NCBI GenBank assembly: GCA_034717975.1
Contig: JAYEMF010000103.1
Span: 1-36,509, forward strand
Source: Campylobacterota bacterium
GTDB taxonomy: Bacteria > Campylobacterota > Campylobacteria > Campylobacterales > Sulfurimonadaceae
DNA length: 36,509 nucleotides
Reading direction: 5' to 3'
The notes under the pieces were generated by a model. That model ran no database searches. It saw nothing but the letters and a program-made list of their open reading frames with translations, and had not been told where the DNA came from. The translations under genes and the position numbers were made by a program. Shown here piece after piece: positions 2,460 to 34,956 of this stretch; the first letter of the stretch is position 1, and each line of letters starts with the position of its first letter.

Positions 2460-2554
2460 ATATGCAGGCTATAATGCGACACATTATAAAAAAATTGTTT
2501 TCAAATTGCCTCTGCTTGATAGCGGGAGATGAAAACAGTGATCCAGAGAGTAGA

Positions 2555-3118
2555 ATGAAAGTTAAACCTGAATTTTTTGATGGCATCGTTAGGCATTGGA
2601 CTGACAAACAGAAGGCAGAAGCCGCCAGGATCACTTATCGTCTGGTAAGTTATTACGCTAAGAAAAATCCGGAAATAGATAAAGCAGATTTTGTACAAAC
2701 CGCCATGCTCGCGGCCATTAAGTGCAGAAAGCGATACGGGAACGATATTGTACCCGCAAACCTTAGTGGGTATATTCGCGAAGGAATAAATCGGGACCTT
2801 CTTAGCGATAAGGCCAAGATGCTTAAGCATGATGTGCGATGCGGCTCTGCGGACGAATGCGTAATTGAGTTTATATCCATTGATGGCGCTGCTCAGGATC
2901 ATCTCCTCAATCAAGACAGCCTTTCCATGTTGCTATACGCGGATGAAATTGAAGATTTGCTCACCGCGGAAGAGTATTATGTGTTTAGAAAAGTAATATT
3001 GCAAGGCGATAGCATCGGGGATTGCTATCGTGACCTCAACCCAACATATTCAAGAAGCACAATGGAGCATGACTTTACCAGAGCAAAAGGTAAAGTCGCT
3101 GCATACTACCGTGACTGA
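2555..3118 (+). CDS. Small sigma70-family (group 3/4- or phage-like) RNA polymerase sigma factor
   Basis: Region-2-like LVSYYAKK..DKADFVQTAMLAAIKCRKRY..LSGYIREGI and region-4-like HTH LTAEEYYVFRKVILQGDSIGDCYRDL..SRSTMEHDFTRAKGKV. ATG 2555 is preferred over ORF-track start 2462. Confidence 0.75.
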   Translation: MKVKPEFFDGIVRHWTDKQKAEAARITYRLVSYYAKKNPEIDKADFVQTAMLAAIKCRKRYGNDIVPANLSGYIREGINRDLLSDKAKMLKHDVRCGSADECVIEFISIDGAAQDHLLNQDSLSMLLYADEIEDLLTAEEYYVFRKVILQGDSIGDCYRDLNPTYSRSTMEHDFTRAKGKVAAYYRD

Positions 3119-3839
3119 GCATTTAAGCACACTTTGTGAAATCTATGGCTTGGAGCCTGCAGATGTCCTTAACGAACTCAATGAAGCTGTTTCAGAACAC
3201 GTAATACTTAAACCCTCCGAAGAGGTTGACACCTTTCTAAAAAATAATAAAATATATTTCAGCATAAGAGATACTGCTAAAGTTGACAATGGCATGGGTG
3301 TTGGTGCCGGCTCTAATGATGGACTGCGTATTGTCAATCTTGAAAAAGCACCAGATCTGTACGAGCAGATCATAAAGAGTTTTGAAAAGGGCGTGGCTGA
3401 GGCCAGTGCCCACAATCAATACACGAAGGCGAAGAGGTGGACAAGAAAGATAGTCACCGGAAAGATATCAAGGGCGACTAAGCAGGGCTTCTTTGTCAAC
3501 ACGCCAATAGGGCAGGGCTTTTGCAGCAAGGCGTATCATGTGGCAAAAGAGCAGGTCAACGGTCTTTATAAGAAAGACAAGGAAATGGACTTTGAAGTTA
3601 GATCCGTTTCTTATAGGTCCGGCAAAGTTCAAATCCTTCTGGCAAGGCGCTCTAATGTGTTGGCAAGAAGAGTGGCGGATGATATCTTTTTTCCTGCTCA
3701 TGCAATCAAAGACGTACAGCGAGTGCCAGGCAAGTACACTAAAATCGTACTCGACAAAAAGCCTACTGCAGATCTGATTCAAAAAGCCAGATACCGGTTT
3801 GGGGGAGAGAGAATAATTATTAAGACTGTGGCCGTATAG
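3111..3839 (+). CDS. Truncated NusA-like protein (NTD-like region, S1 domain, degenerate KH1)
   Basis: IVTGKISR (S1 start), VQILLARRS (NusA PQIILSRT), IKDVQRVPGKYTKIVL (NusA IKAIAREPGSRTKIAV), FGGERIII (NusA LNGEKIDII). GTG at 3111 overlaps the sigma stop. Confidence 0.75.
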   Translation: MTEHLSTLCEIYGLEPADVLNELNEAVSEHVILKPSEEVDTFLKNNKIYFSIRDTAKVDNGMGVGAGSNDGLRIVNLEKAPDLYEQIIKSFEKGVAEASAHNQYTKAKRWTRKIVTGKISRATKQGFFVNTPIGQGFCSKAYHVAKEQVNGLYKKDKEMDFEVRSVSYRSGKVQILLARRSNVLARRVADDIFFPAHAIKDVQRVPGKYTKIVLDKKPTADLIQKARYRFGGERIIIKTVAV

Positions 3840-3869
3840 GCCTGGTGCCTCTTTCCGAATCGAACCTCT

Positions 3870-4976
3870 TTAGATTACCGCTGATCTTTCCTCAATTATA
3901 ATTTCATACTCGATATTCGTGCCAGCTTCTATTTGTATGTCGGTGAGACCAGTGAAGAATACAGACTGATCCTTCATTGTTCCTTTTTTTACAGTATAGC
4001 CTGAACGGTAGGTACTGCTCTCAACGTATGAGATCGGATATTTCTTAATGAGGCCAAAGGCTGTGACGGCAATATAGATATCATGCTTCTCAATATATTC
4101 TTTTAAAAAGTTATCTTCGGACAATAGGCGTAAATACTCGTTCTGATAAGTGGTATGGTGCTCGGTGTGCGCAAGACCATTGAGGTCTGCTTCATGCTTT
4201 TCTCCCCAGGGCATGCGCCATCGAAAATCAACCTGAAGTTGACTATGATCCGGACTTTTACTTGAGAGACCTATTTTAACCTTGGTGGGCTTTATCACAA
4301 CACGCTTCCTGACATGGCTAAAGAAAGCGTCTGCCGCCAGTTTTCCATTGATACGGTTTAGGCGTTGTATGCGTACCTGACTCAACAGTTCCTTTGAGCT
4401 GATAGAAACAATTCTTTTAATATCCTCATTGATAATGTCAATTTGCTTTAACTCTATTTTCCTTAGCTTGACAGCTTCAAATAGTGCGTTGTTTGTCTTT
4501 TTGGCAAAACCTAAATCGGATAGATTCTTTATTTTGAGATTAAGTCTCTCGATCTGTCCCTCAATTTCTTTGTGCTTTTCCTCGAGCCTACTTAGTGCGG
4601 TTTTGGTTTCTGGTGTTGCGTTGAGGTATTCATCAATTCGGCTGTTGTCAACTTTCGCCTCGATAATAACAGTGCAGGTGTTTTTACTAAAATGAGTGCT
4701 AACAACTCTTGATCTCATGAGGGCGGCGGAGTAGACCCTGGCATCCTGCTTGCTAACCAGTGTGTCATCGGAGGATTGAGTATATGTAAAGCTTGATTGA
4801 ACTGCGGTACCGACTTTCTCGATAGCGTTGATCTTTGCAAGGCCTACTGCGACACTAGCCGCTTCCGCCTTGGTGTCGGAAGGTGCCATCTCATATATGC
4901 CGGTTGCTTGAATAGAAATAATTTCTCCATAAGCAGAAGCCATAAACAAAAATGTTAATAAAAGAAGCTTTTTCAT
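3870..4976 (-). CDS. Exported hypothetical protein with an LPP20/FlgT-N-like N-terminal domain and a coiled coil
   Basis: Signal peptide MKKLLLLTFLFMASAYG; motif A..AKINAIEKVG..VQS; RBS AAAGGA upstream. Confidence 0.7.
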   Translation of the reverse strand: MKKLLLLTFLFMASAYGEIISIQATGIYEMAPSDTKAEAASVAVGLAKINAIEKVGTAVQSSFTYTQSSDDTLVSKQDARVYSAALMRSRVVSTHFSKNTCTVIIEAKVDNSRIDEYLNATPETKTALSRLEEKHKEIEGQIERLNLKIKNLSDLGFAKKTNNALFEAVKLRKIELKQIDIINEDIKRIVSISSKELLSQVRIQRLNRINGKLAADAFFSHVRKRVVIKPTKVKIGLSSKSPDHSQLQVDFRWRMPWGEKHEADLNGLAHTEHHTTYQNEYLRLLSEDNFLKEYIEKHDIYIAVTAFGLIKKYPISYVESSTYRSGYTVKKGTMKDQSVFFTGLTDIQIEAGTNIEYEIIIEERSAVI

Positions 4977-5002
4977 TATTTTTCCTTTAGCTCTTGTATA
5001 TG

Positions 5003-5122
5003 AATACTACTAGTATACTACTATTAACATATTAATGTACGCATATTAATAGTATAAAATAAGTGACCACTAAGAAATACTACTATTAGTAGTATTATGA
5101 ACACACAATAAGCTCTTATTGT
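5003..5122. repeat. AT-rich cluster of direct and inverted repeats
   Basis: ATACTACTA at 5004, 5015 and 5077; palindrome AATACTACTA-T-TAGTAGTATT 5076-5096; TACTATTAA/TTAATAGTA at 5019-5027/5046-5054; CATATTAAT twice; ACAATAAG-CT-CTTATTGT 5105-5122. Confidence 0.75.
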
Positions 5123-5132
5123 ACTATTCATT

Positions 5133-5762
5133 TCATGCGCTGTGCGCTTTAGTATCCTGTTGAGCTACTGTTGGCATCTTTTCTGGAAAGTCGTAGTGCA
5201 GCGCTTTGATAAAATCGGTGATTAGCTTCAAATCGCTATTTGTGCCGCTTATTTTGCCAGAATGAACTAGGATATCGATAGCTTTGGGGTTTAGATCCGG
5301 ATAGCCTTCTTTAAAGAACTTGGAAAGAGCCCGCATTTTCCTGATATTGTTGGCCTTATTTTTTAGCGTAAGGTATATTATCCGCGCTTTTTTGTCAATT
5401 GAGTCCGCAAGATCCTTGTTTTGCTTTGATGCATGGGTAAACCCTTTGTATTTTTTTGTAATGGACATGTAGATCCTCGCACAACGTGAGGGGTATGCCA
5501 TTCTACCTTCCGCCGCGGCATTTATAAGCTCATTTTTAATGCACGTTCCCATTTTTCTTTCAATAGAGGTGTCTTTCTCTGCCTGCTTAACCAAGCCTGT
5601 AAACAACTTATCGTTTACGGCTAGATTTTTTAAAAATACATTGATAGCATTTTTTTCATCTACAGTGAATCCTCCTTGGATAATCTCATCTGTAAGGAGG
5701 TTTATCTGCTCTGCTGTCATGTTGACTTTGATAGGCATCTTATGATCCTTTTGGTTTTCCAT
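5133..5762 (-). CDS. Hypothetical lysine-rich cytoplasmic protein, divergent from traG
   Basis: 209-aa ORF with no recognisable motif. Confidence 0.65.
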   Translation of the reverse strand: MENQKDHKMPIKVNMTAEQINLLTDEIIQGGFTVDEKNAINVFLKNLAVNDKLFTGLVKQAEKDTSIERKMGTCIKNELINAAAEGRMAYPSRCARIYMSITKKYKGFTHASKQNKDLADSIDKKARIIYLTLKNKANNIRKMRALSKFFKEGYPDLNPKAIDILVHSGKISGTNSDLKLITDFIKALHYDFPEKMPTVAQQDTKAHSA

Positions 5763-14502: not shown

Positions 14503-14903
14503 AAAAGAGCATAATCGGATTGTCTTTGTCGTTCGTGTCACTATGGGCGGAGCCGGCATATAGCGATATTTATGCCAGTGCGGATAAAGCTGTGTTCTCG
14601 CGAAAGCCAATTGTCTTTGTCGTTATGTCTTCTACATGCTCGCATTGTTACAGCTATTGGAATCGCACCCTGAGTGATCCGGACATAGAGACACTGCTTG
14701 ATAATAATTTTGAGCTTGCAGTATCTGTTGTTGATCAGGGAGGAAAGATCCCTTCAAATCTTCCCTTTAAGGGACAGTTGCCCACAACATATATTCTTTC
14801 TGCTGATGCCAAATTGCTATCTAATCCCATTGAAGGCGATATTGACAAGACGAAACTATATAGCTTGCTATACAGTCTAAATGAGGCGAGACGAAGCGAG
14901 TAG
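14499..14903 (+). CDS. Exported thioredoxin-family protein (TrbB/SoxW-like)
   Basis: Signal peptide, KPIVFVV, CSHC, cis-Pro loop LPTTYIL; RBS AGGAGG. Confidence 0.8.
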   Translation: MKKSIIGLSLSFVSLWAEPAYSDIYASADKAVFSRKPIVFVVMSSTCSHCYSYWNRTLSDPDIETLLDNNFELAVSVVDQGGKIPSNLPFKGQLPTTYILSADAKLLSNPIEGDIDKTKLYSLLYSLNEARRSE

Positions 14904-14952
14904 GCGAACGCCAGGCGTGATTTCATGCAAATACAAAAAAAAGAGGCTTGTT

Positions 14953-15453
14953 ATGATGGCGGTTACCCATGTGATTACATCACTTCTTGTTGCTTCTGCT
15001 CCGATAGTCATCGGATATAACTTTAACTACGACACAGGGCTGATCTACTTGGCATCCACCGCGCTCGGTGCCCTGATAATTGACATTGATGAGCCTAAAT
15101 CTTTCGCCGGAAGGCGTTTATACTTCTTTTCATTTCTTATTAATATGAGCCTTGGACATAGGACTATCACGCATAATTACTTTATCGCAATTATAGGCTT
15201 GATTCTCTCATGGTTCTATTGGCAAAACATTTATGCGGTTGGATTTTTTTTGGGAATGACGGTGCACATAATGGGTGATGAAATGACGGGAAATGTAAAA
15301 GGTGCCTATTGGCCGATCAGTGAAAGGTTTTCTCTTTTTCCGAAGGGTTGGCGCTTCAGGGTGGGAGGCTTTGTTGAGCGAGTGATTGCCACATGTTCGA
15401 CTATCCTGCTCATAGCGATTCACGGTTACGGGGTGATGCGTGGAATACTCTGA
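14953..15453 (+). CDS. YdjM-like metal-dependent membrane hydrolase
   Basis: TH, DIDEPKS..GR, GHRTITH and HIMGD..T motifs in a hydrophobic protein. Confidence 0.85.
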   Translation: MMAVTHVITSLLVASAPIVIGYNFNYDTGLIYLASTALGALIIDIDEPKSFAGRRLYFFSFLINMSLGHRTITHNYFIAIIGLILSWFYWQNIYAVGFFLGMTVHIMGDEMTGNVKGAYWPISERFSLFPKGWRFRVGGFVERVIATCSTILLIAIHGYGVMRGIL

Positions 15454-15454
15454 A

Positions 15455-16009
15455 ATGGCCATCGCAAATTTTGTTGGACTCTTTTTTATTTCCGCCTACA
15501 CAAAGCTCAGAAACTTTGTAGTCGCAGGCGAAAACGGAGTCATGGTCGCTGTTATTTTTTTCTTTGGAACCATTTTGCACGAAATTAGCCATTTGCTGAT
15601 GGTGTGGGCTACGCTAAGCAGAGCAACCAGTATTGACCTGGTGCCAAGGATGGCGGATGTGAAAACGGATTTTGGGCTAATTGAGCGTCGGTGGACGCTG
15701 GGCGGTGTGACCTATATCCCTCGCAGCAAGCTTGCATACTTTCCAGCCGGGATGGCTCCTTTACTATTGATTGTTCCCGCATTTATTGTGTATTCCAACT
15801 GGCTTACATGGTTTGAGGTGTCGTGGGTTTCGATTGTGTCACTCTATGTTGTCGTGTACTTATTGCTGTTTAGCAGCATTCCTTCTCCGTCCGACTTTCG
15901 CATAGCCTTCGAAGGTAACGGATGGGCAGTCTGGATTCTGATTATTGCCGTTACGGCAGCGATTTACAATTTCCATATAAAGGAGCTAATCGATGTCATA
16001 TCAATATGA
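15455..16009 (+). CDS. Membrane zinc metalloprotease-like protein (HExxH; M50-like/zincin)
   Basis: GTILHEISH, LGGV, APL and PSPSD motifs; several TM segments. Confidence 0.75.
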   Translation: MAIANFVGLFFISAYTKLRNFVVAGENGVMVAVIFFFGTILHEISHLLMVWATLSRATSIDLVPRMADVKTDFGLIERRWTLGGVTYIPRSKLAYFPAGMAPLLLIVPAFIVYSNWLTWFEVSWVSIVSLYVVVYLLLFSSIPSPSDFRIAFEGNGWAVWILIIAVTAAIYNFHIKELIDVISI

Positions 16010-18389
16010 TAATTTAATGATCGTGGAATCGCCGACGAAAGCGAGCACGATCGCAGGATTTTTGCGTGACGCCCCAGGACGATGGCTGGTCAAGGCCACA
16101 AGGGGACATATTCAGAATCTTCCGAATGATCGGCACGGCATAGAGCATGCCAATGGCCAGTTTCGTGGAGAGTGGGTATACACAAAAGGAAAAAAAGAGT
16201 TAGCCAGAGAGCTTGTTGGTGATGCGAAAAATGCCCTTGAGGCCATTTATATAGCTACTGATGGTGATTACGAAGGGGAGCGGATTGCTTCAGACCTATT
16301 CAATGTGGCCGGAATCGGAAAGCTTGGAAAGCCGTGCTATCGCATTGTTTTTAGGCAGATAACAAAAGATCATATTCTTGAGGTGCTGCAAAACACGACC
16401 GAGGGCTTGATAGACGGAAACTCCGTTGATGCCCAAAAGGCCCGACGAATGATATATCGAGAAGTAGGATTTCCGATATCACAAATCCTACTCAAAGACT
16501 TTAAGCGCAATAGGGAAAAGGAGCTTCCTGAGGGAACCGGCAATGTTATAGCCCCTGCCTTGAGGCTGATCGTTGAAGCGGAACGAAAGATTGATGTTTA
16601 TGTTGAAATGGATTTCGAAAAAGTCTATGCCGATTACATATTTGACGGGGTGCATATTAGGCTTGTGATGCAGGCAAAATTTCAAAGCGAACACAGCGTT
16701 GAGCTTTCAGAGATTCTTCACACTGTGCGTAATTCACCGCACATAGTCAAGGAGTATGACGAGAAGGATAGTGAAAAGTCACCGCCAAAACCCTTGACGA
16801 CTTCGGGCCTGCAAAGGGGCGCTTGGTATCTTTTTGGCATTGAAGAAGAGGGGACGATGAGGTTGGCTCAGAAGCTCTTTGAAGGACTAGAGCTTTATGG
16901 CAAGCGGACAGGATTGATCACCTATATGCGTACCGATTCTCATCACATAGCAAAAGAAGCAAGTGAAGAAGCGATCCAGATTGTGGAGCAGCTGTTCGGC
17001 GAAGAATATACACTTTATGGCATAAGGGACTATTCTCAGGGGAAAAGTGAAGATGAGTCACAAGAAGAGCACCCTCATGAAGCCATTAGGCCGACACAGT
17101 TTTCGCAAGAGTATTGGCCGGATAACATCAAAGAGCAGCTATTGCAACATGAAGATGGGGAGAGTCTCTTAAAGATCTATCGTTTTATCTATAACTCTTT
17201 CTTGTGCGTTCAAATGCCAAACGCACAATATGACCGCTCTCGAATAGAGGTGTCTGCGGGAGGAAACCTTTTGCTTGGACAGGCAAATCAGCAACTATTT
17301 GATGGATGGGAAATCATAGGACACGAGATTAGAGCGAACTACAAGGATCAGCGAGGGCACGAAAAAGAAGTCATTTTGCCTCCCGTCGAAGAGGGTATAG
17401 AGGTTGGCTATATCGATGTTTCCACTATGTCACTATCCTCGCGTTCTCCTGAACGATACGGAAGAGGGCGCTTTATAACCACGCTGGAAAATAAAGGGAT
17501 CGGGAAGCCATCCACTTTGGCGACAGTCATAAAATCACTCATGAAGAAAAAATATATCAAAGAGCTCAATGACGGTAATAGTAAAAAGCATAAAACGCTG
17601 AAGCCAACAGATCTTGGAAGAAAAGTATATGCATGGCATGAGTTGCACGTGCCATGGCTTATTGATCTGGAGACAGCTAAAAAGCTTGAAGAGTTTCTTG
17701 TGAAAGTTGAGAAAGGGGAGATGCCCTACAATGAACTGATCGGCATATTTCATGAATCCGTAGAAGAGTTAAAGCGGTCTATGGGCTATGACCTGGATGG
17801 GCCAACAGAAGGGCAAATAAGCCTTGCAAAAAAGATCGCGAAACAAAAAGGGCAAATGCTTGACAATAATTTTTTAGCGTCGGCAAAGATAGTATCTCTG
17901 TATATCAAAGAAAATATTGATGCGCTGGAGACAATTTGTACGTGCAGTGTGTGTGGCAAAGGTGAGCTCTATGACGGGGAGGTAAAGCTTGCCTGCAATA
18001 ATCCTAAGTGCGACTTTGAAATTTGGAAAAACAGAATGGATGGTTTTTTTGAAGCCTTCAAGGTAGAAATGCAGCAGAAGGACTGTGGAGATGTTGTCAA
18101 AATAATCATGGAAAACGGCGATGTTTTGATTAATAATATGACAGGGAAAAAAGGCCATCCCTTTAGCGCTGAGGTTGATATAGCATACGACAAGAAGTAT
18201 AAAAACTACAGCCTCCATATTAAAAAGTTCGTCAAGGACGATATGTTCAAGAGTGTTGAAAGTTCTGCTCCGGAAGTGCCATTGCGGCGCGATACAATAG
18301 ACGCTCCTGTTGATGAAAACAAGATAATGGCTGAAGTGCCACGAGCGGTCGAGCCCACAAAGCAAGCCGGAGGCTTTGAGTGGAATTAA
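15993..18389 (+). CDS. Type IA DNA topoisomerase with C-terminal zinc ribbon and Topo III-like tail; several motifs divergent
   Basis: IVESPTKA, GHI, ATDGDYEGE, LITYMRTDS (catalytic Tyr), HEAIRPT, GIGKPST, CSVC..C....C. Confidence 0.92.
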   Translation: MSYQYDNLMIVESPTKASTIAGFLRDAPGRWLVKATRGHIQNLPNDRHGIEHANGQFRGEWVYTKGKKELARELVGDAKNALEAIYIATDGDYEGERIASDLFNVAGIGKLGKPCYRIVFRQITKDHILEVLQNTTEGLIDGNSVDAQKARRMIYREVGFPISQILLKDFKRNREKELPEGTGNVIAPALRLIVEAERKIDVYVEMDFEKVYADYIFDGVHIRLVMQAKFQSEHSVELSEILHTVRNSPHIVKEYDEKDSEKSPPKPLTTSGLQRGAWYLFGIEEEGTMRLAQKLFEGLELYGKRTGLITYMRTDSHHIAKEASEEAIQIVEQLFGEEYTLYGIRDYSQGKSEDESQEEHPHEAIRPTQFSQEYWPDNIKEQLLQHEDGESLLKIYRFIYNSFLCVQMPNAQYDRSRIEVSAGGNLLLGQANQQLFDGWEIIGHEIRANYKDQRGHEKEVILPPVEEGIEVGYIDVSTMSLSSRSPERYGRGRFITTLENKGIGKPSTLATVIKSLMKKKYIKELNDGNSKKHKTLKPTDLGRKVYAWHELHVPWLIDLETAKKLEEFLVKVEKGEMPYNELIGIFHESVEELKRSMGYDLDGPTEGQISLAKKIAKQKGQMLDNNFLASAKIVSLYIKENIDALETICTCSVCGKGELYDGEVKLACNNPKCDFEIWKNRMDGFFEAFKVEMQQKDCGDVVKIIMENGDVLINNMTGKKGHPFSAEVDIAYDKKYKNYSLHIKKFVKDDMFKSVESSAPEVPLRRDTIDAPVDENKIMAEVPRAVEPTKQAGGFEWN

Positions 18390-27528: not shown

Positions 27529-27879
27529 ATGAGAGAATGGATAATGACTCTTGCCATAAATATGATGCTGACGCTAGTGCTGATTGTAGGTTATGACAAA
27601 TTCTATAAACAACCAGAACCAACAATTGTTGCCATTGATGTTCAGTCAGTGTTGGCTCCAAAGGAAAAGGCGTTCAAGGCGCGGCTAAGAAATTCAGAAA
27701 ATGCAGAGGAGATGGGAGTGATCTATAACGAATCTGTAGCCTATATGGACAAAGTGTATGCATCAATAAACGCTTATGGGAAACAAAATAATCTGATCAT
27801 ACTCGATAGACGAGCCATACTGAGCGGAGAAACGGAGGATTTGACGAATGAGCTATCTAAAGCACTTGCGAAAAAGTGA
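27529..27879 (+). CDS. trbI: TrbI-like small membrane-anchored protein
   Basis: One N-terminal TM, IVAIDV, NLIILD..AILSG..DLT; directly after traC as in F. Confidence 0.7.
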   Translation: MREWIMTLAINMMLTLVLIVGYDKFYKQPEPTIVAIDVQSVLAPKEKAFKARLRNSENAEEMGVIYNESVAYMDKVYASINAYGKQNNLIILDRRAILSGETEDLTNELSKALAKK

Positions 27880-28402
27880 TATCGCCGAACGGTTTAATGA
27901 GCGGATACTGTCAAATAGAAGGTTTTACATTCTTTTGGTAGTGGGCACCATCTTTTGGATGAGTGCTCTTTTTGCATTCAAGCAAAACTTTAACTTCCAT
28001 GTCAATCTAACCCCCTCTTTACCATTTACCTTTCTAGTCACCAATAAAACGGTGGATAATACCGACTTGACTAAGCGAGCAATCGTAGAGTTCCCGCTCG
28101 GCTTCGACAGTCCATACAAAAAGTATAAGAAAGACTCTATGTTCGCCAAGCAGCTGGCATGTGTGCCGGGGGATTTGCTTGAAACCAAAGGGCTTGAATA
28201 TTACTGTAATGACTTTTTGATTGCTACGGCATTGACGCATGACTCAAAAGGCAAGGCGATCACTCAATATTTCAATTTCAACGGTGTTGTTCCGGAGGGG
28301 CAATATTTTGCAAGAGGCATACACTCTCATTCGTATGATTCTCGCTATTGGGGTTTCCTTGAGAAGAAACAGATTACAGGGGTAGGCGTATGGCAATATT
28401 AA
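27848..28402 (+). CDS. S26-family conjugative signal/pilin-maturation peptidase (TrhF-like)
   Basis: NLTPSLP (Ser), FAKQL (Lys), PGD, SYDSRYWG. Confidence 0.9.
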   Translation: MSYLKHLRKSDIAERFNERILSNRRFYILLVVGTIFWMSALFAFKQNFNFHVNLTPSLPFTFLVTNKTVDNTDLTKRAIVEFPLGFDSPYKKYKKDSMFAKQLACVPGDLLETKGLEYYCNDFLIATALTHDSKGKAITQYFNFNGVVPEGQYFARGIHSHSYDSRYWGFLEKKQITGVGVWQY

Positions 28403-29838
28403 AAAACAGAGCTTCCCCTCTGATATTGGCAATGGCTTTGACCTCGACATCCAATGCATCTATGCAATCGTTTATTGAGGGAAATATAGACGGCTCTTAT
28501 AGAGCAGTTTCCCCAGGCTACTTCAAGTCACAAACGGCAAGCAACTATACGGGTGGGAATATGGCTATCCGATGGGGCGGCGGGGGCGGTATTACAAACC
28601 CTGTGCATATTACTCCTCCGTCCATGTCGGTGGGGTGTGATGGCATCGATCTCGCATTTGGTTCATTTTCATTTATGGACCCCGATATGTTTATAGAGAA
28701 GGCAAAGCTGATTGCACAGGCTGCACCGGCCTTCGCATTTAAGATGGCTCTCTCTACGCTTTGTAAAGAATGCGACACTATTATGACTGAACTTGAAGCT
28801 GCCATCAATGCTATCAATAACATCTCAATGGATTCATGCGGAATTGCTCAAAGCCTCGGCACGATGGCGGGAAAAGCTATCGGGCAAGAAGTGATCAGCG
28901 GTACGGCAAGCGATCATAATGATGCTCATTCGAGATATTTCAGCGATCCTCTTGGGGGATTCCAGTCTTTTGTAGGAGGTGTCAACACTGCCCTCGGAGG
29001 AACCTGGAGTATCACGAGAGACAAGATGGCCTATGGATCTCTCTTGAAGCAAATCATGGCATCTAACGACAGCTTCTTGGCGTCGGAAGATTGGATGGAG
29101 CCGCTTATTCGAGGCATTTACGGGGACTTGTACGGGTATAACACCGGAGGAAAGCAGGATGGACTGGTAAATATTGGAGCCTCTATCGAGATCAATAATT
29201 TTATTGATCTTATGATGAATGGGAAAAATGAAAACAGTGATGAGCTTCTCGGCGTTGTTGTTCAGGAGACTATGGTTGGCGACATACCCGGTATACCGAA
29301 CTGGGAGAGTGTTGACCAGGTGGCGAGCATAGAGCTTATTCTGCCTGCCGGTATTGTAGGGCTCGTGTCTACCAATATAGAATCCATAAAAGACAAGGTG
29401 ATCACAAGAACGGCGTTGAGCGCCAATGAAATAGGTTTTCTAAATACCATTTCCGTTCCGGTATGGAGAGCGATTAATGCTGAAGTCTCAGCATTAAGAA
29501 GAAGCCAGACATCATCGTTTCTTACTGAAAGTGCCTATTTCTCAATCGCCTATTTTCAACTGGAACAACTTCTTCGCTATTTCAATACAGCGATCATGAA
29601 GGGCATAATTAATGTCGAAAACAATCTAAATGGAATGCTCGATGCAGAGAAGCGTTTTTTTATTGATGAATATAAGGCGCTGGTGGAGCAAAGAGTCAGG
29701 GCAATAAATACCGCATTGTATCAAAAGCGCAACCATTATGTAACAACTACCGACAAGGAGCTGATGGCCCAAATTGAAAAATTTGAGACAGACTATCGCC
29801 GGCAAGCTATTTCAAGATCTTTTGCAAACGGATTGTAA
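28390..29838 (+). CDS. traH: TraH
   Basis: PGYFKSQT..YTGG, PPSMSVGCDGIDLAFGSFSFM, AFKMALSTLC, MDSC. Confidence 0.93.
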   Translation: MAILKNRASPLILAMALTSTSNASMQSFIEGNIDGSYRAVSPGYFKSQTASNYTGGNMAIRWGGGGGITNPVHITPPSMSVGCDGIDLAFGSFSFMDPDMFIEKAKLIAQAAPAFAFKMALSTLCKECDTIMTELEAAINAINNISMDSCGIAQSLGTMAGKAIGQEVISGTASDHNDAHSRYFSDPLGGFQSFVGGVNTALGGTWSITRDKMAYGSLLKQIMASNDSFLASEDWMEPLIRGIYGDLYGYNTGGKQDGLVNIGASIEINNFIDLMMNGKNENSDELLGVVVQETMVGDIPGIPNWESVDQVASIELILPAGIVGLVSTNIESIKDKVITRTALSANEIGFLNTISVPVWRAINAEVSALRRSQTSSFLTESAYFSIAYFQLEQLLRYFNTAIMKGIINVENNLNGMLDAEKRFFIDEYKALVEQRVRAINTALYQKRNHYVTTTDKELMAQIEKFETDYRRQAISRSFANGL

Positions 29839-29839
29839 A

Positions 29840-31147
29840 ATGAAATTTCTTCTATCGACAGCCATTGTGATCTCATCGCTATTTGGTGCTGACATGACAA
29901 GCAGCAGCATTGACGGGACAGATGCCGCCAACTCTGTAAGAACTTTTTTCAGCAGTGATTTTACTGATACCATCAACAAGCCTATGACAAGTGATGCCTC
30001 AATGCAGACTGTCGATGGCGGACAGACGTTTGATGGGGTAAATATCACTTGTGCCGCGGCGCTAGAGGGGGAGTATCTCAGGGTTGAGTACCTATTGGAA
30101 GCCGGCAGCGAAATGGTTCCTATCAGCAGGCTTGATACTGACCTTGACGGTGCGTATGATACTCAAACAATCAGTTTTCAGAATGAGTCAGGAGGATCTA
30201 TTTCTTCGGTGAGCGCAAGCGGCCTGTGCGTTGACGGTATTGTTTCTTGCACCCCAGGGACATGGAGTGACTGCGATTTTTACGAATGGCAGTTCGATGG
30301 CTCTGTAGTAATTCTGCAAAGGGCAATGCGTGACGATCTTTCGACTTGCCAGTGTACAAATGAAGCGTGCGGATCTGCTGCGGCACTACAAAAGTATGGA
30401 ATGCTGAATATCATGTCGGAAGGAATCTTTCAGAAGGTATTTAGCGGGAGTCCGGACTTTGTTGTATCTAATGTGCAAAATGACGGCACCTCAGTGATGT
30501 ATTACGGACAGGACAACAGTGCGTGCAACACAGGAGTAACGCCCACAACATATACCGGTTCACTTGAGAATAAAGGTGAGCTCGCAAGACAGGACGCTCT
30601 ATTGGATCCAAACTCAGCTTATTCTGTTCTCCAGGACTCAGCTTACTCCAATGAGACGAGCCAGATAGACAAGACTTCAAGTTTTTTGACGAGCAGCTAT
30701 ACCAGCGAGTATATTTCAGCGGAAGATGAAGCGCGAATGGATGATCGTCAGGCGTCGATATATTCTTCAACCAGCAGCACACAGATAGGTGATATGCAGG
30801 CGTTCAGCTATACAGACCAATATGTCGATGAAAATGGAAACACAATCACAACTGCTCAAAGTTCAGTGGCTTACGGTGGTGGTGGTGATACAGTGCTGTT
30901 CTGTCAGGTTGAATGGCAAGGCATTTCGGCTACTGTTTTCTCTGATAAAACCAATGCATCTGACTATGCTAGTGCCAGGGAAATGGTCAGAGTTGAGACA
31001 AGAGAGTGTGTTGATGGATCCTGCCCTGTAAACGCAGGGGAGGCTATCAAACATTCGTGTGGACCGATCAGTAATTTCCCTGAAGTTGTTGTTCGAATGG
31101 AAGCCGCACATGAAGCCACCAAAGATATGATCTGTAGTACTGATTAG
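29840..31147 (+). CDS. Exported Cys-containing protein, probable N-terminal part of a split TraN
   Basis: Signal peptide; SGLCVDGIVSC.PGTW.DC, CQCTNEAC, C-terminal C..GE.IKHSC; sits between traH and the TraN C-terminal gene. Confidence 0.6.
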   Translation: MKFLLSTAIVISSLFGADMTSSSIDGTDAANSVRTFFSSDFTDTINKPMTSDASMQTVDGGQTFDGVNITCAAALEGEYLRVEYLLEAGSEMVPISRLDTDLDGAYDTQTISFQNESGGSISSVSASGLCVDGIVSCTPGTWSDCDFYEWQFDGSVVILQRAMRDDLSTCQCTNEACGSAAALQKYGMLNIMSEGIFQKVFSGSPDFVVSNVQNDGTSVMYYGQDNSACNTGVTPTTYTGSLENKGELARQDALLDPNSAYSVLQDSAYSNETSQIDKTSSFLTSSYTSEYISAEDEARMDDRQASIYSSTSSTQIGDMQAFSYTDQYVDENGNTITTAQSSVAYGGGGDTVLFCQVEWQGISATVFSDKTNASDYASAREMVRVETRECVDGSCPVNAGEAIKHSCGPISNFPEVVVRMEAAHEATKDMICSTD

Positions 31148-31150
31148 GGG

Positions 31151-33544
31151 ATGAGAATGAAACGTATATTGTTAATAATCTTACTATTTGTCACCTCTCT
31201 TTGGTCTACTTGCGCATACCCCGTATTATTATATGGAGACCATTATTACACCCATGTCACCAAAGATTATACATGGGATGAGGCCAACAACTACGCAATG
31301 TCTTTAGGTGGATATCTGGCAATTCCAAATGACACTGAAGAGAACAACTGGTTTGTAGCGCAGGGATGGAGAGAGGATTGGCTTGGAATTTATGACCCAA
31401 ATAAAATAGAAAATTTTTGTACAACGGGGGCATCAACTTGTATCCCTGATGACTCACGCTTCAGAACTGTTAAGGGAGATGCTGTTCTATATAAGAATTG
31501 GGAAGATTACGAACCAAATAATCTTGTACTTCCTGAAGACTTTGATGAAAACGGTGATCCGCTGGTTACCCCATTGGGCGAGTATTGGGTGCTTTTAGGG
31601 ACAAGTGGGAAGTGGGGGGACTATGGCAATCATGCCAATAGTTACCAGTCTATATTTAGAACCTCATCTATTATTGAGTTTGACACAGCACCGGCTTGTC
31701 ACGGAGAGGAATCGACAGAAGAGATCGTTGTGCCTGATGTATTTTGTATTGCGGATTATAATGGTGATGACGTCGGCCAAGAGGAAGAGATATTTGAATG
31801 CACACCATCAACTACGGGGTCCGTATGCGATGCAGATATGGAAATGTGCGATCCGAAATACATAGATGCTAACTGTACTTCTGACGGTGTTCTTGAGACG
31901 GATCGAAATATGTGTCAACTGGACGGCTCAATAGCATGTCCTGCGGAATACACGTTTGATGAGCTGTCGGATTTGTGCTATCAGGACGTGGTGCGCGCTG
32001 TGCCGGATATGTGCCCGAATGATAACTATGTCTTTTGGCAGGACGATCTGTGTATTGACGAACCTGTGTGCCCAGTCGGAACAACCTATGATACAACACG
32101 CAATAGATGCGAAGCTCCTGTGGTTTGCCCAACAGGAACTTTATATAACTCTGTGACCGGCTTTTGTGAAGAAAGATTTCCCGCGAGTGCTGACTGTTCT
32201 CTTACGATTCAAGGAACCGTCTTTGAATCTATTCCGGCCCCAGACGGAACGAGCATCGTTGGAATAGACACATTAATCAGTAATCAGATCCAGGACACGG
32301 TATTTTGGTTTGATAGCGGGTGTGTTGTCAAGGCTTACGCAACTTTCCCTGTTGCAGTGGTATCAGGATTCCCAGATGCAGAACCTGGAACATCTTTTGA
32401 TGTTATTTTTACTGGACCAGTTGAGAATACATCTACAATGTGTAACAGCGGGGATATATATACGGGCTCCGATTGTCTGCGTCAGGTTTCGCCATCTTGT
32501 TCCGTGACCGCACCGTATCAGGACGGAGATACTTGCTATAACTCTGCTTCGTGCCTCGATGGAGGCACGCTTGATGACGCCGTAGACCAGTGTGTATTGC
32601 CTACTGAACCTGCCTTTAATGAGGAAGAGGTAGATTGTGGAGTCGGCACATTAGATGTAAATACTTCACGATGTATCATCCCTGATACAGTTAATGAGGA
32701 CACCTGCCCTGAAGGATATTCATACTCGCCGTATCCTGTGAGTAAATGCGAGGCAATTCCACTGTGTGAGCAAGGTACATATATCCCTGCTCCCGATGCT
32801 TTGCCGAAGCCGTACAACAATACAGTAGACCACCTTATTACCGACATGTGCTATTTGGGCGATGTTGCGTGTCCTCACGGTGATCAATTTGATTGTATGA
32901 CGGTGCCTACATTGGACTATCTCAACTACTGTTCCCCGTGGTCTTGTACGGACGCATCCGGAATAACCTATAGCGGATCGGTTGTCGGTTCGTCAGACAA
33001 AACAAATGATGCGGTAATCGACGAGAATGGCTGTGCCGGGCAAATTTATATATTCAACGGAAAAGACTACCGCTGTCGCTCGGAAGATGCCTTCTTTGGA
33101 TTGACAGGCGGGGGATGCTGCGATGAAGATAAGGTATTTCTCAATCTTGTTACGTGTAAAGAAGATGAAAAGATACTGGCCGTTAAGAACCGTAATGATC
33201 TTTGCCATTACGTGGGGGAATATTGCTCAAAGGAGCTTGATCTTGTACTCACGACGATATGTATTCAGAAGACTCAGACATATTGCTGTTTCAACTCTGT
33301 TTTGGGGAGGATTATGCAGGAACAGGCAAGGCCTCAGCTTAATATCGCCTGGGGCAGTCCGGAAAGTCCGCAGTGTCGAGGGTTTAAGCCAGAAGAGTTT
33401 GAAAAGATAGACTTTAGTCAACTGGATTTGAGTGAATTTGAAGAGTCGTTAAGCTATCCAGGGGGAGAGACCGATACGACAAGCAGTTTTTATGACGATA
33501 CCAAAGAGAGCATTACCTCGAAAACGGAGGGAATAGTGCAATGA
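31151..33544 (+). CDS. traN: TraN mating-pair stabilisation adhesin with an N-terminal C-type lectin-like domain
   Basis: TraN C-terminus IFNGKDYRC..CC..CHYVGEYCS..C.QK..YCCFNSVLGRIMQEQAR.QL..WG..PQCRGF..EF.KIDFSQLDLSEF; own signal peptide. Confidence 0.93.
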   Translation: MRMKRILLIILLFVTSLWSTCAYPVLLYGDHYYTHVTKDYTWDEANNYAMSLGGYLAIPNDTEENNWFVAQGWREDWLGIYDPNKIENFCTTGASTCIPDDSRFRTVKGDAVLYKNWEDYEPNNLVLPEDFDENGDPLVTPLGEYWVLLGTSGKWGDYGNHANSYQSIFRTSSIIEFDTAPACHGEESTEEIVVPDVFCIADYNGDDVGQEEEIFECTPSTTGSVCDADMEMCDPKYIDANCTSDGVLETDRNMCQLDGSIACPAEYTFDELSDLCYQDVVRAVPDMCPNDNYVFWQDDLCIDEPVCPVGTTYDTTRNRCEAPVVCPTGTLYNSVTGFCEERFPASADCSLTIQGTVFESIPAPDGTSIVGIDTLISNQIQDTVFWFDSGCVVKAYATFPVAVVSGFPDAEPGTSFDVIFTGPVENTSTMCNSGDIYTGSDCLRQVSPSCSVTAPYQDGDTCYNSASCLDGGTLDDAVDQCVLPTEPAFNEEEVDCGVGTLDVNTSRCIIPDTVNEDTCPEGYSYSPYPVSKCEAIPLCEQGTYIPAPDALPKPYNNTVDHLITDMCYLGDVACPHGDQFDCMTVPTLDYLNYCSPWSCTDASGITYSGSVVGSSDKTNDAVIDENGCAGQIYIFNGKDYRCRSEDAFFGLTGGGCCDEDKVFLNLVTCKEDEKILAVKNRNDLCHYVGEYCSKELDLVLTTICIQKTQTYCCFNSVLGRIMQEQARPQLNIAWGSPESPQCRGFKPEEFEKIDFSQLDLSEFEESLSYPGGETDTTSSFYDDTKESITSKTEGIVQ

Positions 33545-33948: not shown

Positions 33949-34956
33949 ATGGGACTAAAAGAACGAATAAAAAGCTTGTTTCGCATAACCGGAACAGAAA
34001 AAGGGCTGCTTGAACTAAAAGAGATAAAGCAGCAGTTTATCCTTGTGGGTGTCGGCCTATTGCTTATCTTCCAAGTGGCTATAGGTTATATTGTTTTGGC
34101 TGAAATGGGAATGTTGACTCCGGCAATCAAAGCAAAATATGATAAAAACGTGGCGGTTCTTATGCTTGATAAGCCGATTACCAACCCCTATATTAACACT
34201 ATTATTGAGCGCCTTGAAGAGGTTAGGGGAAAAAAAGAGGAGTTCCCCCACTTAATGATTGTCGTGGCGAGCGGCGGCGGTTCCCCGCAGGGATCATCGG
34301 AGCTTGCAAACTATCTCGTCGATCTTCAAAAAGAGATAAAAGTAACCATGTATATCGAGAGTGTGGCCGCCAGCGGAGCATATTACATTGCTTCTGCCAT
34401 CAAGCATGATCCGAACGACAAATTGTCAGGCATCATTGCCAACGAGAACGCGATTGTTGGCTCTATCGGTGTCATTTTGACAAATCTGGTCTACAAGGAC
34501 GCGGCAGATAAGCTGGGTATTAAACAAAACGAGATTACTATCGGGAAGTTTAAATCACCTATCAGTGGATGGAAGAATTTAACACCGGATAACGAGCTGT
34601 ATCTTAAAAACCAGCTATTAGAGCCCGTATACAATAACTTTCTCAAGTTTGTCAGCAAGGGGCGCGATATTCCAATGGACGAGCTCAAAGAACTTGCGGA
34701 AGGCAGAGTCTATATTGCTACCGAAAGCGTAGGGAAACTTGTTGATCGCGTGTCATACCTAACGCAGATTAAGCGCGAGATCAAAGAGAGCGTAGAGGTT
34801 GCCAATCCGGACGACGAGGTAGGCTTTGTGCCCGTCAGCCTTTCGCGCAAGCGCGGTTCATTGTTTAATGTCAGTCTTAATATCGAGAACCTCTCAGTCG
34901 GCAGTGACCTTGCCGGCTCAATTAGAGGCGATTCCCAAAACTATGGGATGCAGTAA
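33949..34956 (+). CDS. sppA: S49-family serine peptidase (SppA-like)
   Basis: One TM, SGGGS, AASGAYYIA (Ser), VGSIGV, GKFKS (Lys), GRVY, LVD. Confidence 0.9.
   Translation: MGLKERIKSLFRITGTEKGLLELKEIKQQFILVGVGLLLIFQVAIGYIVLAEMGMLTPAIKAKYDKNVAVLMLDKPITNPYINTIIERLEEVRGKKEEFPHLMIVVASGGGSPQGSSELANYLVDLQKEIKVTMYIESVAASGAYYIASAIKHDPNDKLSGIIANENAIVGSIGVILTNLVYKDAADKLGIKQNEITIGKFKSPISGWKNLTPDNELYLKNQLLEPVYNNFLKFVSKGRDIPMDELKELAEGRVYIATESVGKLVDRVSYLTQIKREIKESVEVANPDDEVGFVPVSLSRKRGSLFNVSLNIENLSVGSDLAGSIRGDSQNYGMQ

Follow-up and report, generated by a model that had tools for sequence, protein, structure and literature searches.

An EPN-bearing C-type lectin-like domain ahead of the TraN body in a Campylobacterota F-type conjugation operon, with a possible role in mating-pair stabilization

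Within a 36,509-nucleotide stretch of Campylobacterota DNA (hereafter the window, meaning the whole stretch that was analyzed), the traN gene of an F-type conjugation operon encodes a protein whose N-terminal region is, based on profile searches and structure prediction, a true C-type lectin-like domain (CTLD) of the carbohydrate-recognition type. Our favored explanation, which we put forward tentatively and as something close to an even chance, is that this domain is a Ca2+-type glycan-binding accessory module that aids mating-pair stabilization, and that it is not the main determinant of specificity. The gene, its upstream companion and the parts of the encoded protein, in order, are as follows.

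29840..31147, + strand: orf457, companion gene upstream of traN, exported and Cys-rich (ORF and translation)
31151..33544, + strand: traN open reading frame, 797 aa (ORF list; Pfam F_T4SS_TraN, 1.8e-28)
31151..31213, + strand: predicted Sec signal peptide, residues 1-21, MRMKRILLIILLFVTSLWSTC (from translation; cleavage site putative)
31226..31684, + strand: C-type lectin-like domain, long-form and CRD-like, residues ~26-178 (profile, AF2, Foldseek and VIA-align)
31685..31744, + strand: linker, residues 179-198, with P181 and C183 (pLDDT <50 at 184-198 in the full-length model)
31745..33028, + strand: Cys-rich variable middle, residues 199-626, presumed stalk and 'tip' (identity comparison)
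33029..33457, + strand: conserved TraN C-terminal domain, residues 627-769, with a GGGCC motif (PF06986 at 631-745)

A preliminary description of this DNA had called the gene traN, and that identity is borne out by the match of the C-terminus to F_T4SS_TraN and by the F-type operon context. The Pfam model (PF06986) scores 100.2 bits against a gathering score of 23 over residues 631-745 (model positions 131-239 of 240), and a C-domain HMM that we built here scores 258 bits at residues 627-769. The matches of 14 NCBIfam TraN models are confined to the C-terminus, and each lies below its cut-off; the best TraN equivalog, NF009019, reaches 128.4 bits against a cut-off of 518, and no curated TraN subfamily fits. 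Because all of the NCBIfam TraN equivalogs fall far below their cut-offs, the protein belongs to a distant TraN lineage. Genes surrounding traN on the same strand form an F-type set (TraG_N, TraF, TraU, TrbC_Ftype, TraL, TraE, TraK and TrbI/TraB, together with DsbC, TraV, TraC, TrbI_Ftype, S26 peptidase and TraH), and the operon fills the window. Low et al. 2022 (PMC9246713) recognize TraN as an exported protein with at least 20 cysteines; the present protein agrees with that description, as it has 47 cysteines in 797 aa (counted from the translation) and an N-terminal hydrophobic signal. Judged by its sequence and its neighbors, the gene encodes TraN, the mating-pair-stabilization protein, as part of a conjugative element of the F type (MPF-F).

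The residue at the end of the predicted signal peptide, Cys21, is conserved in at least 90% of 17 aligned TraN homologues. We do not favor lipoprotein anchoring via this cysteine: the residues leading to it read STC here and INC, MNC or LIC in relatives, which does not match a lipobox. In the linker, P181 and C183 are invariant in the alignment of TraN homologues. The full-length AF2 model of the 797-aa protein (17 sequences) has a mean pLDDT of 52.8 and a pTM of 0.29; the variable middle is poorly modeled, and the model is too poor for placing the CTLD. The upstream companion orf457 probably starts at the ATG at 29840 rather than at the TTG at 29774, and no Pfam or NCBIfam family was found for it. 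Its homologues adjoin TraN in 52 of 80 related loci, including two in which the orf457 homologue and the TraN C-domain lie in one open frame.

The CTLD string quoted in the preliminary description, at 31232-31684 on the forward strand, is given exactly by the translation (YGDHYY...TWDEA...LGGYLAIPND.EENNW...WLGIYD...YKNWEDYEPNN...GKWGDYGNH). Pfam Lectin_C matches the whole protein at E 0.0049 (18.0 bits) and the domain alone at 7.8e-4 (20.6 bits); both matches stay below the gathering score of 22.6. Since the query alone falls below this score, we set the homology at the level of the family: Lectin_C matches 15 of 16 aligned family N-domains at E≤0.01, and two relatives exceed the gathering score with 29.0 and 30.3 bits. 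When a profile of the 16 homologous N-domains was aligned against PDB sequences, 166 distinct sequences matched at E≤1, with the CL-P1/SRCL CRD at 5e-10 and MBP-A at 2e-8; all 60 PDB matches listed are C-type lectin domains, mostly sugar-binding CRDs.

Structure prediction agrees. AF2 predicted a CTLD fold for the domain, comprising two helices, two sheets and the long-loop region, as had been proposed from its sequence, with a mean pLDDT of 90.9 and a pTM of 0.87. Foldseek matched this model to C-type CRDs, with at least 460 hits at E≤0.001. VIA-align superposed it on SRCL (2ox9) with Z 16.9 and an rmsd of 2.1 A over 125 of 130 residues, on the ASGR CRD also with Z 16.9, and on all 115 of 115 residues of MBP-C (1kza) at 30% identity. 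Overall, the animal Ca2+-dependent CRDs (mannose-binding protein, SRCL/CL-P1, asialoglycoprotein receptor and macrophage galactose lectin) superpose as whole domains, with Z 16-17 and rmsd 1.7-2.1 A over 115-125 residues. They share with the TraN domain the WIGL-type core, the EPN/QPD motif followed by Asn, the beta3 Glu and the W-x-D motif, whereas the Asn of WND and the canonical cysteines are absent from the TraN domain. The latter is also longer (~155 residues, as opposed to 112-135 in the matched CRD chains) owing to insertions that include ~15 residues between EPN and beta3, as counted against MBP-A numbering, and unlike the animal CRDs it shows no evident neck or oligomerization region.

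Within TraN residues 1-200, cysteines occur at positions 21, 90, 97, 183 and 199. The four cysteines of the canonical CTLD positions (C1-C4 and C2-C3) are absent from the domain, and the fold is kept without them; W146 stands at the canonical C2 position, and no cysteine follows W-x-D. The positions suggest two probable disulfides instead, C21-C183 and C90-C97; C90 is 91% conserved (66 rows). The motifs of the domain, with conservation in the 66-row family alignment, are listed below.

31379..31399, + strand: W77-L-G-I-Y-D82-P83, WIGL-type core motif (G79 and D82 100% in 66 rows)
31418..31441, + strand: C90...C97 loop, a family-specific probable disulfide in an insertion, non-canonical (Cys positions)
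31511..31522, + strand: EPN motif E121-P122-N123 (GAACCAAAT), at 31511-31519, plus N124 (translation)
31538..31540, + strand: D130, a nearly invariant Asp within the insertion of ~15 residues that separates EPN from strand beta3 (98% in 66 rows)
31577..31588, + strand: G143-E144-Y145-W146, start of strand beta3 (G143 100% and E144 98% in 66 rows)
31613..31621, + strand: W155-G156-D157, the 'WND' position, with Gly for Asn (translation)

Translation confirms that the EPN reported at 31511-31519 is E121-P122-N123, and N124 is 100% conserved in the 66 rows. In Ca2+-dependent CRDs, this tripeptide, EPN or QPD, sits in the long loop and has a cis-Pro. Strand beta3 spans residues 121-128 of the AF2 model, which correspond to 142-149 of the protein. 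By MBP-A numbering, D82 probably corresponds to a Ca2+ site-1 Asp (D161), E144 to the Ca2+-bridging Glu of animal CRDs (E193) and W146 to C195. Across the family, conserved positions are concentrated at the canonical Ca2+/sugar site, namely [EQ]P[ND]-N, the beta3 Glu and W-x-D, and D130 is a candidate extra metal ligand.

Variation at the EPN position is restricted. Among 69 family members, the motif reads QPDN in 35, EPNN in 19, DVEN in six, EPDN in four, DIEN in two, EPSN in two and QPNN in one; 59 of the 69 have [EQ]P[ND], and every member has only O-donors, with E, Q or D at the first position and N, D, E or S at the third. Based on a tree of 67 rows from which the motif columns were left out, the best tree requires 13 QPD and 11 EPN changes, and the starred branches force at least five of each. 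The EPN position looks functionally constrained, with the classic EPN/QPD alternation. The eight members (of 69) that form the D[VI]E plus WRD clade have no proline at this motif and probably lack the Ca2+/sugar site.

The preliminary description had cautioned that WND reads WGD in this protein, which holds (W155-G156-D157). In the family, W155 is 100% and D157 94% conserved (66 rows), and Asp occupies its position in 63 of 69 members; residue 156 is hypervariable, with A, G, Y, R, S and F among those that occur but never N, such that none of the 68 members complete at that position has the Asn. In animal CRDs, the Asn of WND is a ligand of both Ca2+ and the sugar. Because it is absent from the query and from 68 of 68 members, any binding of Ca2+ or sugar at this site may differ from the canonical mode.

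Outside TraN, the domain is most closely related to bacterial surface proteins in which Lectin_C is repeated (T9SS-sorted, RTX/cadherin and LRR multidomain proteins). All 13 that we scanned pass Pfam Lectin_C. Of six that were aligned, four have a non-Asn W-x-D (WVD, WGD, WSD, WAD, WYD or WLD) and one has WND. In these proteins, which have no link to conjugation, the CTLDs are repeated along adhesin-like scaffolds, whereas the TraN domain is single and N-terminal. The C-terminal domains of intimin and invasin and the variable proteins of DGRs (Mtd, TvpA) also bind receptors at cell or virion surfaces via a C-type-lectin-type fold; however, they are compact or FGE-type and lack the Ca2+/sugar loop, unlike the TraN domain, and no folds of these types occur among the 49 Foldseek or 50 VIA-align matches listed. 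We rejected a DGR-diversified lectin-fold protein because the domain folds as a canonical CRD and a scan of 33 window ORFs detected no reverse transcriptase family.

The CTLD-TraN family comprises at least 55 clusters at 50% identity, mostly from Campylobacterota judging by their record titles, with CTLD identities of 37-63% across them. All 17 word-index homologues are TraN. Among 150 representatives listed, 56 belong to the close family: the TraN C-domain is present in 41, and the remaining 15 are fragments no longer than 534 aa. A further 16 are more distant, 14 of them with the TraN C-domain. Pfam identified TraN in 12 of 13 distant single-CTLD matches scanned. Weak versions of the domain (30-67 bits) occur in TraNs of Deferribacterales, Hydrogenothermaceae and Sulfuricurvum. 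Using megablast, traN had no match in PLSDB; tblastn with the CTLD identified five named plasmids that carry the family, and the Campylobacter and Nitrosophilus plasmid TraNs that were examined (4 of 4) are all QPD.

No CTLD match was detected in 58 of 80 TraN-related loci, and the alignment of CTLD-less TraNs begins at query residue ~193-199. In 15 CTLD-less TraN N-terminal parts, a survey of what stands in place of the domain found no credible Pfam domain, only weak cEGF and one CBM_14 fragment. The CTLD has been added cleanly at the N-terminus of a full TraN and does not stand in for another domain. Literature searches found no description of a CTLD-bearing TraN.

Known TraNs (F-like, IncA/C, IncH and Acinetobacter plasmids; TraN-S/M/L/V) share with this protein the PF06986 C-terminal Cys-rich domain and the position within an F-type T4SS operon, and their ends are likewise conserved, with a variable middle that moves between backbones. 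As described in PMC9246713 and PMC13104618, known TraNs are built from a base that bears one or two tips, and their partners are the outer-membrane proteins OmpA, OmpK36, OmpW and OmpF, whereas in the present TraN a complete lectin-type domain precedes the body. The words lectin, LPS and glycan have 0 occurrences in PMC13104618 (J Bacteriol 2026).

Identity comparisons between close relatives bear on which part of the protein might select recipients. The query and its closest distinct homologue (P0003) share 62% identity in the N-domain, 32% in the middle and 71% in the C-domain; for a second pair (P0014 and P0018), the values are 91%, 30% and 97%. Thus, the CTLD is conserved in step with the C-terminal TraN domain, and the middle region is exchanged between backbones, which argues that the variable 'tip' seems to carry fine specificity and that the CTLD looks like an accessory module. 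The earlier proposal that recipients are chosen by the lectin domain therefore stands in part: the CTLD is of carbohydrate-recognition type, but its role as chooser is weakened, as it evolves like the C-domain.

The same pattern, in which the CTLD keeps step with the C-domain while the middle is swapped, would also suit a donor-side anchor, whereby the CTLD binds an outer-leaflet glycolipid of the donor itself (LOS core or a lipid-linked glycan) and holds or orients TraN with no contact to the recipient. In the F-like TraN models of PMC9246713, the N-terminus is a portion of the region packed against the C-terminal domain and remote from the tip; a CTLD on the N-terminus may therefore sit nearer to the donor membrane than to the recipient. 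The same paper (PMC9246713) considers TraN to be held solely by an amphipathic helix, and the conserved metal/sugar-site residues fit any glycan ligand, the donor's included. However, 58 of 80 related TraN loci do without a CTLD match, the repeated EPN/QPD switching fits the tracking of variable partner surfaces at least equally well, and the full-length AF2 model (pLDDT 52.8, pTM 0.29) gives no position for the CTLD. We regard a donor-side anchor as unlikely.

An explanation that we consider similarly improbable is that the CTLD binds a protein, free of Ca2+ and sugar, in the manner of the CTLDs of intimin, invasin and NK receptors, with a recipient outer-membrane protein or an orf457-type transfer partner as its ligand. 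Consistent with this, no member has the WND Asn, the domain lacks the canonical disulfides, and the family alignment shows three family-specific loop insertions around the site; moreover, the conserved companion gene stands by TraN in 52 of 80 loci and is in one frame with the C-domain in two, and the characterized TraN receptors are all proteins in the portions of PMC9246713 and PMC13104618 cited. By contrast, the top-scoring structures are Ca2+-dependent CRDs that bind sugars, and they match from end to end, with the long loop; in addition, the limitation of [EQ]P[ND]-N, Glu and Asp to metal-ligand residues is unexpected for a protein-only interface. Finally, the CTLD might be a structural or vestigial part, a cap for folding or stability or a spacer, that the TraN lineage inherited without a ligand of its own; this seems to us quite improbable. 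In its favor, decay of the site with the domain retained is seen in the D[VI]E/WRD clade (8 of 69) and in the weak versions from Deferribacterales, Hydrogenothermaceae and Sulfuricurvum (30-67 bits). Against it, at least 55 clusters retain the domain at 37-63% identity, the invariant residues are clustered at the canonical site, and motif exchanges are conservative only (E/Q and N/D).

Under the favored explanation of an accessory glycan-binding module, the long-form CTLD of ~155 residues, added directly after the signal peptide and ahead of a complete TraN, would be displayed on the cell surface with the rest of the protein. A metal ion may be held via E121, N123, E144 and D157, with D130 perhaps substituting for the missing Asn. 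This metal site would grip a glycan of the partner cell, be it lipo-oligosaccharide, capsule or a protein-linked glycan; the grip would be multivalent and of low specificity and would help mating-pair stabilization, and fine receptor specificity would still be set by the hypervariable middle 'tip'. EPN/QPD alternation would tune the class of sugar, mannose/GlcNAc-like versus galactose/GalNAc-like. The sequence evidence suggests that surface sugars may help plasmids with a CTLD-TraN to hold the partner cell. Low et al. 2022 (PMC9246713) note that F conjugation had both OmpA and LPS as recipient factors.

A further-reaching claim, which we view with considerable doubt, is that CTLD-TraNs are true metal-dependent lectins and that the repeated change between EPN and QPD acts as a 'glycan code' governing conjugative host range among Campylobacterota and neighboring groups. 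If this were true, QPD forms would grip Gal/GalNAc-rich surfaces and EPN forms, such as the present TraN, Man/GlcNAc/Glc-type glycans; recipient surface sugars and outer-membrane proteins would then both gate plasmid spread. Campylobacter N-glycans and LOS are GalNAc-rich.

The receptors defined for TraN in mating-pair stabilization are all recipient outer-membrane proteins, as given in the parts of PMC9246713 and PMC13104618 cited; a lectin module in TraN would add surface glycans (LOS, capsule and glycoproteins) as a second layer of partner recognition. This would be relevant to how plasmids spread among Campylobacterota, a group with both food-borne pathogens and sulfur oxidizers that are abundant in the environment. 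It would also be a rare instance in which a C-type CRD of the animal EPN/QPD type performs a defined task within bacterial machinery. Because the family naturally includes EPN, QPD and site-less forms, the glycan idea can be tested directly. Even if the ligand is a protein or the donor envelope, the arrangement of signal peptide, CTLD and TraN body, with its conserved companion gene, represents a new architectural class of TraN.

Translation of the + strand gave exactly the peptide that the preliminary description had reported at 31232-31684, in the N-terminal part of a traN ORF; GAACCAAAT at 31511-31519 encodes E121-P122-N123, and W155-G156-D157 lies downstream. Pfam F_T4SS_TraN matched the C-terminus of the protein (residues 631-745, 1.8e-28), and 14 NCBIfam TraN models matched at the C-terminus only, all far under their equivalog cut-offs; this TraN lineage is distant from enterobacterial TraNs. 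The window is one entire contig of a 2.52-Mb genome in 149 contigs, and it is occupied by an F-type transfer operon (TraG_N, TraF, TraU, TrbC, TraL, TraE, TraK, TraB/TrbI, DsbC, TraV, TraC, TrbI_Ftype, S26 peptidase, TraH, an unnamed 457-aa gene, then traN). Based on the domain match and this operon context, the name TraN given to the gene at the outset is correct. The genes considered here are:

151-2192, - strand: HATPase_c histidine kinase paired with a response regulator, at the contig's left end
2462-5762: four ORFs without a family, adjoining that pair and preceding the 1254-aa TraG
14881-15453: YdjM-family membrane protein gene, embedded in the transfer operon between trbC and traL
15993-18389: type IA topoisomerase gene (Toprim and Topoisom_bac, 798 aa), embedded mid-operon between trbC and traL
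27848-28402: S26 signal peptidase gene
29774-31147, + strand: companion gene, 457 aa, likely start ATG 29840, exported, Cys-rich, between traH and traN
31151-33544, + strand: traN, 797 aa, 47 Cys
33949-34956: S49/SppA-type signal-peptide peptidase gene, directly downstream of traN and additional to the S26 gene

The kinase/response-regulator pair may represent regulation or cargo of the element. From 299 TraN relatives in species-representative genomes, we kept 80 related loci; no homologue of the S49/SppA-type peptidase was seen in these 80. The 457-aa companion protein has no family in Pfam or NCBIfam, and its homologues adjoin TraN in 52 of the 80 loci (Campylobacterota, Desulfobacterota, Geobacter, Sphingomonadaceae). 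Within loci L026 and L035, the companion-homologous part and the TraN C-domain share a single open frame. These sequence relationships suggest a conserved TraN companion, or a split/fused TraN half.

Searched alone, the query matched Lectin_C marginally: the whole protein scored 18.0 bits and the isolated domain 20.6, against a gathering score of 22.6. The best phmmer E-value for the mannose receptor and MBP-C among PDB sequences was likewise modest, at 0.03. When residues 20-185 were used in a word-index search, 17 of 289 candidates proved to be homologues, every one of them a TraN, and 7 have precomputed PF00059 matches. Lectin_C was matched at E≤0.01 by 15 of the 16 members of an N-domain alignment, and two relatives exceed the gathering score (29.0 and 30.3 bits), and the Lectin_C signal that was to be checked is clear for the family and marginal for the query alone. 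A profile of these 16 N-domains matched 166 distinct PDB sequences at E≤1. Every one of the 60 matches listed is a C-type lectin domain, and single-domain matches include the SRCL/CL-P1 carbohydrate-recognition domain (CRD; 5e-10) and MBP-A (2e-8).

With the same alignment as input, AF2 modeled the domain at a mean pLDDT of 90.9 and a pTM of 0.87. Foldseek returned at least 460 PDB matches at E≤1e-3, and all 49 among the matches listed are C-type lectin domains, nearly all CRDs. VIA-align superposed the model on SRCL (Z 16.9, rmsd 2.1 A, 125/130 residues), on ASGR1 and ASGR2 (Z 16.9) and on MBP-C (Z 16.2, 115/115 residues, 30% identity). Because the family-level sequence signal and the structure prediction agree, we consider it solid that the predicted fold of the N-terminus is that of a C-type lectin-like domain (CTLD), as had been claimed from the motif; it is of the long-form, sugar-binding type. 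The N-terminal part of the protein is arranged as follows:

residues 1-21: signal peptide
about residues 26-178: CTLD
P181 and C183, both invariant: linker, followed by the TraN body

Alignments to TraN relatives without a CTLD begin at query residue ~193-199, which argues that the CTLD is an N-terminal addition to a complete TraN. In the VIA-align comparisons, the domain spans ~155 residues versus 112-135 in the matched CRD chains. Relative to these CRDs, it has a C90...C97 loop, an insertion of about 15 residues that separates EPN-N from strand beta3 (by MBP-A numbering), and a longer stretch downstream of W-x-D. The canonical CTLD cysteines are absent, the only cysteines in the first 200 residues being 21, 90, 97, 183 and 199; C21-C183 and C90-C97 probably form disulfides. 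The traN operon also includes a DsbC gene.

We aligned 68 family members and the query with an N-domain HMM for a census of the putative sugar site. The tetrapeptide at the EPN position was QPDN in 35 of 69, EPNN in 19, DVEN in 6, EPDN in 4, DIEN in 2, EPSN in 2 and QPNN in 1; thus [EQ]P[ND] occurred in 59/69, and both variable positions held only oxygen-donor residues in 69/69. The Glu that opens beta3 (E144) was present in 68/69 and the Asp of W-x-D in 63/69. The preliminary description had cautioned that WND is replaced by WGD, and this caveat applies family-wide: Asn occupied the middle position in 0 of the 68 members having the motif; this position is hypervariable, with A in 14-15, G in 11-12, Y in 11, R in 9-10, S in 6-8 and other residues besides. 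In 66 complete, non-duplicate rows (without fragments P0073 and P0067 and P0002, a 99% copy of the query), Y33, P59, G79, D82, R103, N124, G143, W155 and E176 were 100% conserved, D130 and E144 98%, and D157 94%.

We take E121/N123/E144/D157 to be E185/N187/E193/D206 of Ca2+ site 2 in MBP-A numbering, and D82/N124 to be D161/D188 of site 1; on this assumed mapping, site 2 retains four of its five ligands and lacks N205. A candidate to replace N205 is D130, which is family-invariant and lies in the insertion between EPN-N and beta3. The D[VI]E sequences have WRD in every case and lack the proline, and they probably have no metal site.

EPN and QPD are the two classic sugar-class motifs. A quick IQ-TREE analysis of 67 N-domains, with motif columns removed and two fragments dropped, placed the D[VI]E group in one clade (99*) and requires 13 QPD changes and 11 EPN changes, with well-supported branches forcing at least 5 of each. 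These totals are approximate, because the alignment has just 154 columns and the tree leaves 29 of 64 inner branches unresolved. Repeated EPN/QPD interconversion with EPD and QPN intermediates is what a working, retunable sugar site would give.

An exhaustive search with the 151-aa domain identified 280 clusters at E≤1e-3, 71 at E≤1e-10 and 19 at E≤1e-30. The best 150 of the 280 comprise 56 close family members, 16 more distant ones and 78 that are not TraN. The TraN C-domain was found in 41 of the close family, the other 15 (157-534 aa) probably being incomplete sequences, and in 14 of the 16 distant members. Pfam identified TraN in 12 of 13 distant single-CTLD matches, with lengths up to 2436 aa. 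All 13 multi-CTLD proteins scanned, which bear T9SS tails or RTX/cadherin, PPC or LRR domains, had their Lectin_C assignment confirmed. Very long TraNs of other lineages (P0116, 1749 aa; P0126, 2436 aa; P0138, P0161 and P0162) have a single divergent CTLD at ~50-200 or ~250-400, and therefore the lectin-TraN combination is wider than the Campylobacterota clade.

Across the 80 loci, a full CTLD was found in 15, a weak or partial match (30-67 bits) in 7 and none in 58. Thirteen of the 15 are labelled Campylobacterota (Sulfurimonas x6, Nautiliaceae, Aliarcobacter, Arcobacteraceae, Poseidonibacter, two Campylobacter, one labelled Epsilonproteobacteria); the others are a Thermodesulfobacteriota MAG and a 4-kb contig binned as Flavobacteriaceae. 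Among 200 other genomes of the window's own family, 8 have a TraN relative, the N-terminal part also being matched in 6 of these; such a sporadic distribution is what mobile DNA would show. In PLSDB, the domain occurs on five plasmids: C. iguaniorum pCIG1485E, C. upsaliensis plasmid 2, C. coli plasmid 2, Nitrosophilus labii pHRV44 (all QPDN) and Aliarcobacter cibarius pACIB (DIPN/WRD). Four of the five copies are annotated plainly as TraN. On C. coli plasmid 2 (NZ_OU532557.1, L082 8848-11012), two adjacent CDS encode a "C-type lectin domain-containing protein" (385 aa) and "TraN" (332 aa), with a traT gene nearby; in Sulfurimonas MAG locus L019, the CTLD and TraN C-domain are in separate frames. 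Each arrangement may be a real split or a sequencing error.

Identity (%) of the N-domain, Cys-rich middle (query residues 199-626) and C-domain (627-769), for selected pairs only; P0003 is the closest distinct homologue of the query, and the other P numbers are family proteins
Pair; N-domain; middle; C-domain
Query / P0003; 62; 32; 71
P0014 / P0018; 91; 30; 97
P0012 / P0016; 91; 46; 96
P0004 / P0018; 40; 50; 64

The CTLD follows the conserved C-domain in the upper three rows, and the middle diverges there. Within P0012/P0013/P0016 and P0014/P0018, the CTLD and C-domain are 91-97% identical, whereas the middles differ in length and share 30-59% identity; the equivalent region of the query is 31745-33028. 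P0004 and P0018 resemble each other more in the middle than in the N-domain, suggesting that middles are exchanged and that these two distant backbones share one. These patterns look like natural "tip swapping" by recombination, and conserved ends with a variable middle mirror the base/tip logic described for enterobacterial TraN in PMC9246713 and PMC13104618. The CTLD tracks the C-domain and thus belongs to the "conserved" side; we read it as an accessory, coarse-specificity module, and the pairwise identities speak against the earlier proposal that it chooses recipients.

A rival reading is a donor-side anchoring role. In the F-like TraN models of PMC9246713, the N-terminal domain extends toward the tip and has the C-terminal domain folded back against it; thus a CTLD at the extreme N-terminus may sit near the TraN base. 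The full-length model of the 797-aa protein was of poor quality, too low to place the CTLD.

We found no description linking TraN with a C-type lectin domain in the open-access literature, although subscription journals may hold one; "lectin," "LPS" and "glycan" occur 0 times in a 2026 survey of TraN size classes (PMC13104618). Precomputed PF00059 matches and one PGAP product name exist, so the domain is unremarked rather than invisible. TraN proteins with a fused CRD-type CTLD are real and form a family of considerable size, most of it from Campylobacterota. The EPN/QPD site appears constrained and repeatedly retuned, which partly supports the proposed glycan binding; the missing WND Asn and canonical disulfides weigh against it. 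By its evolutionary behavior, the CTLD appears to be a conserved accessory module of TraN rather than the recipient-choosing tip.
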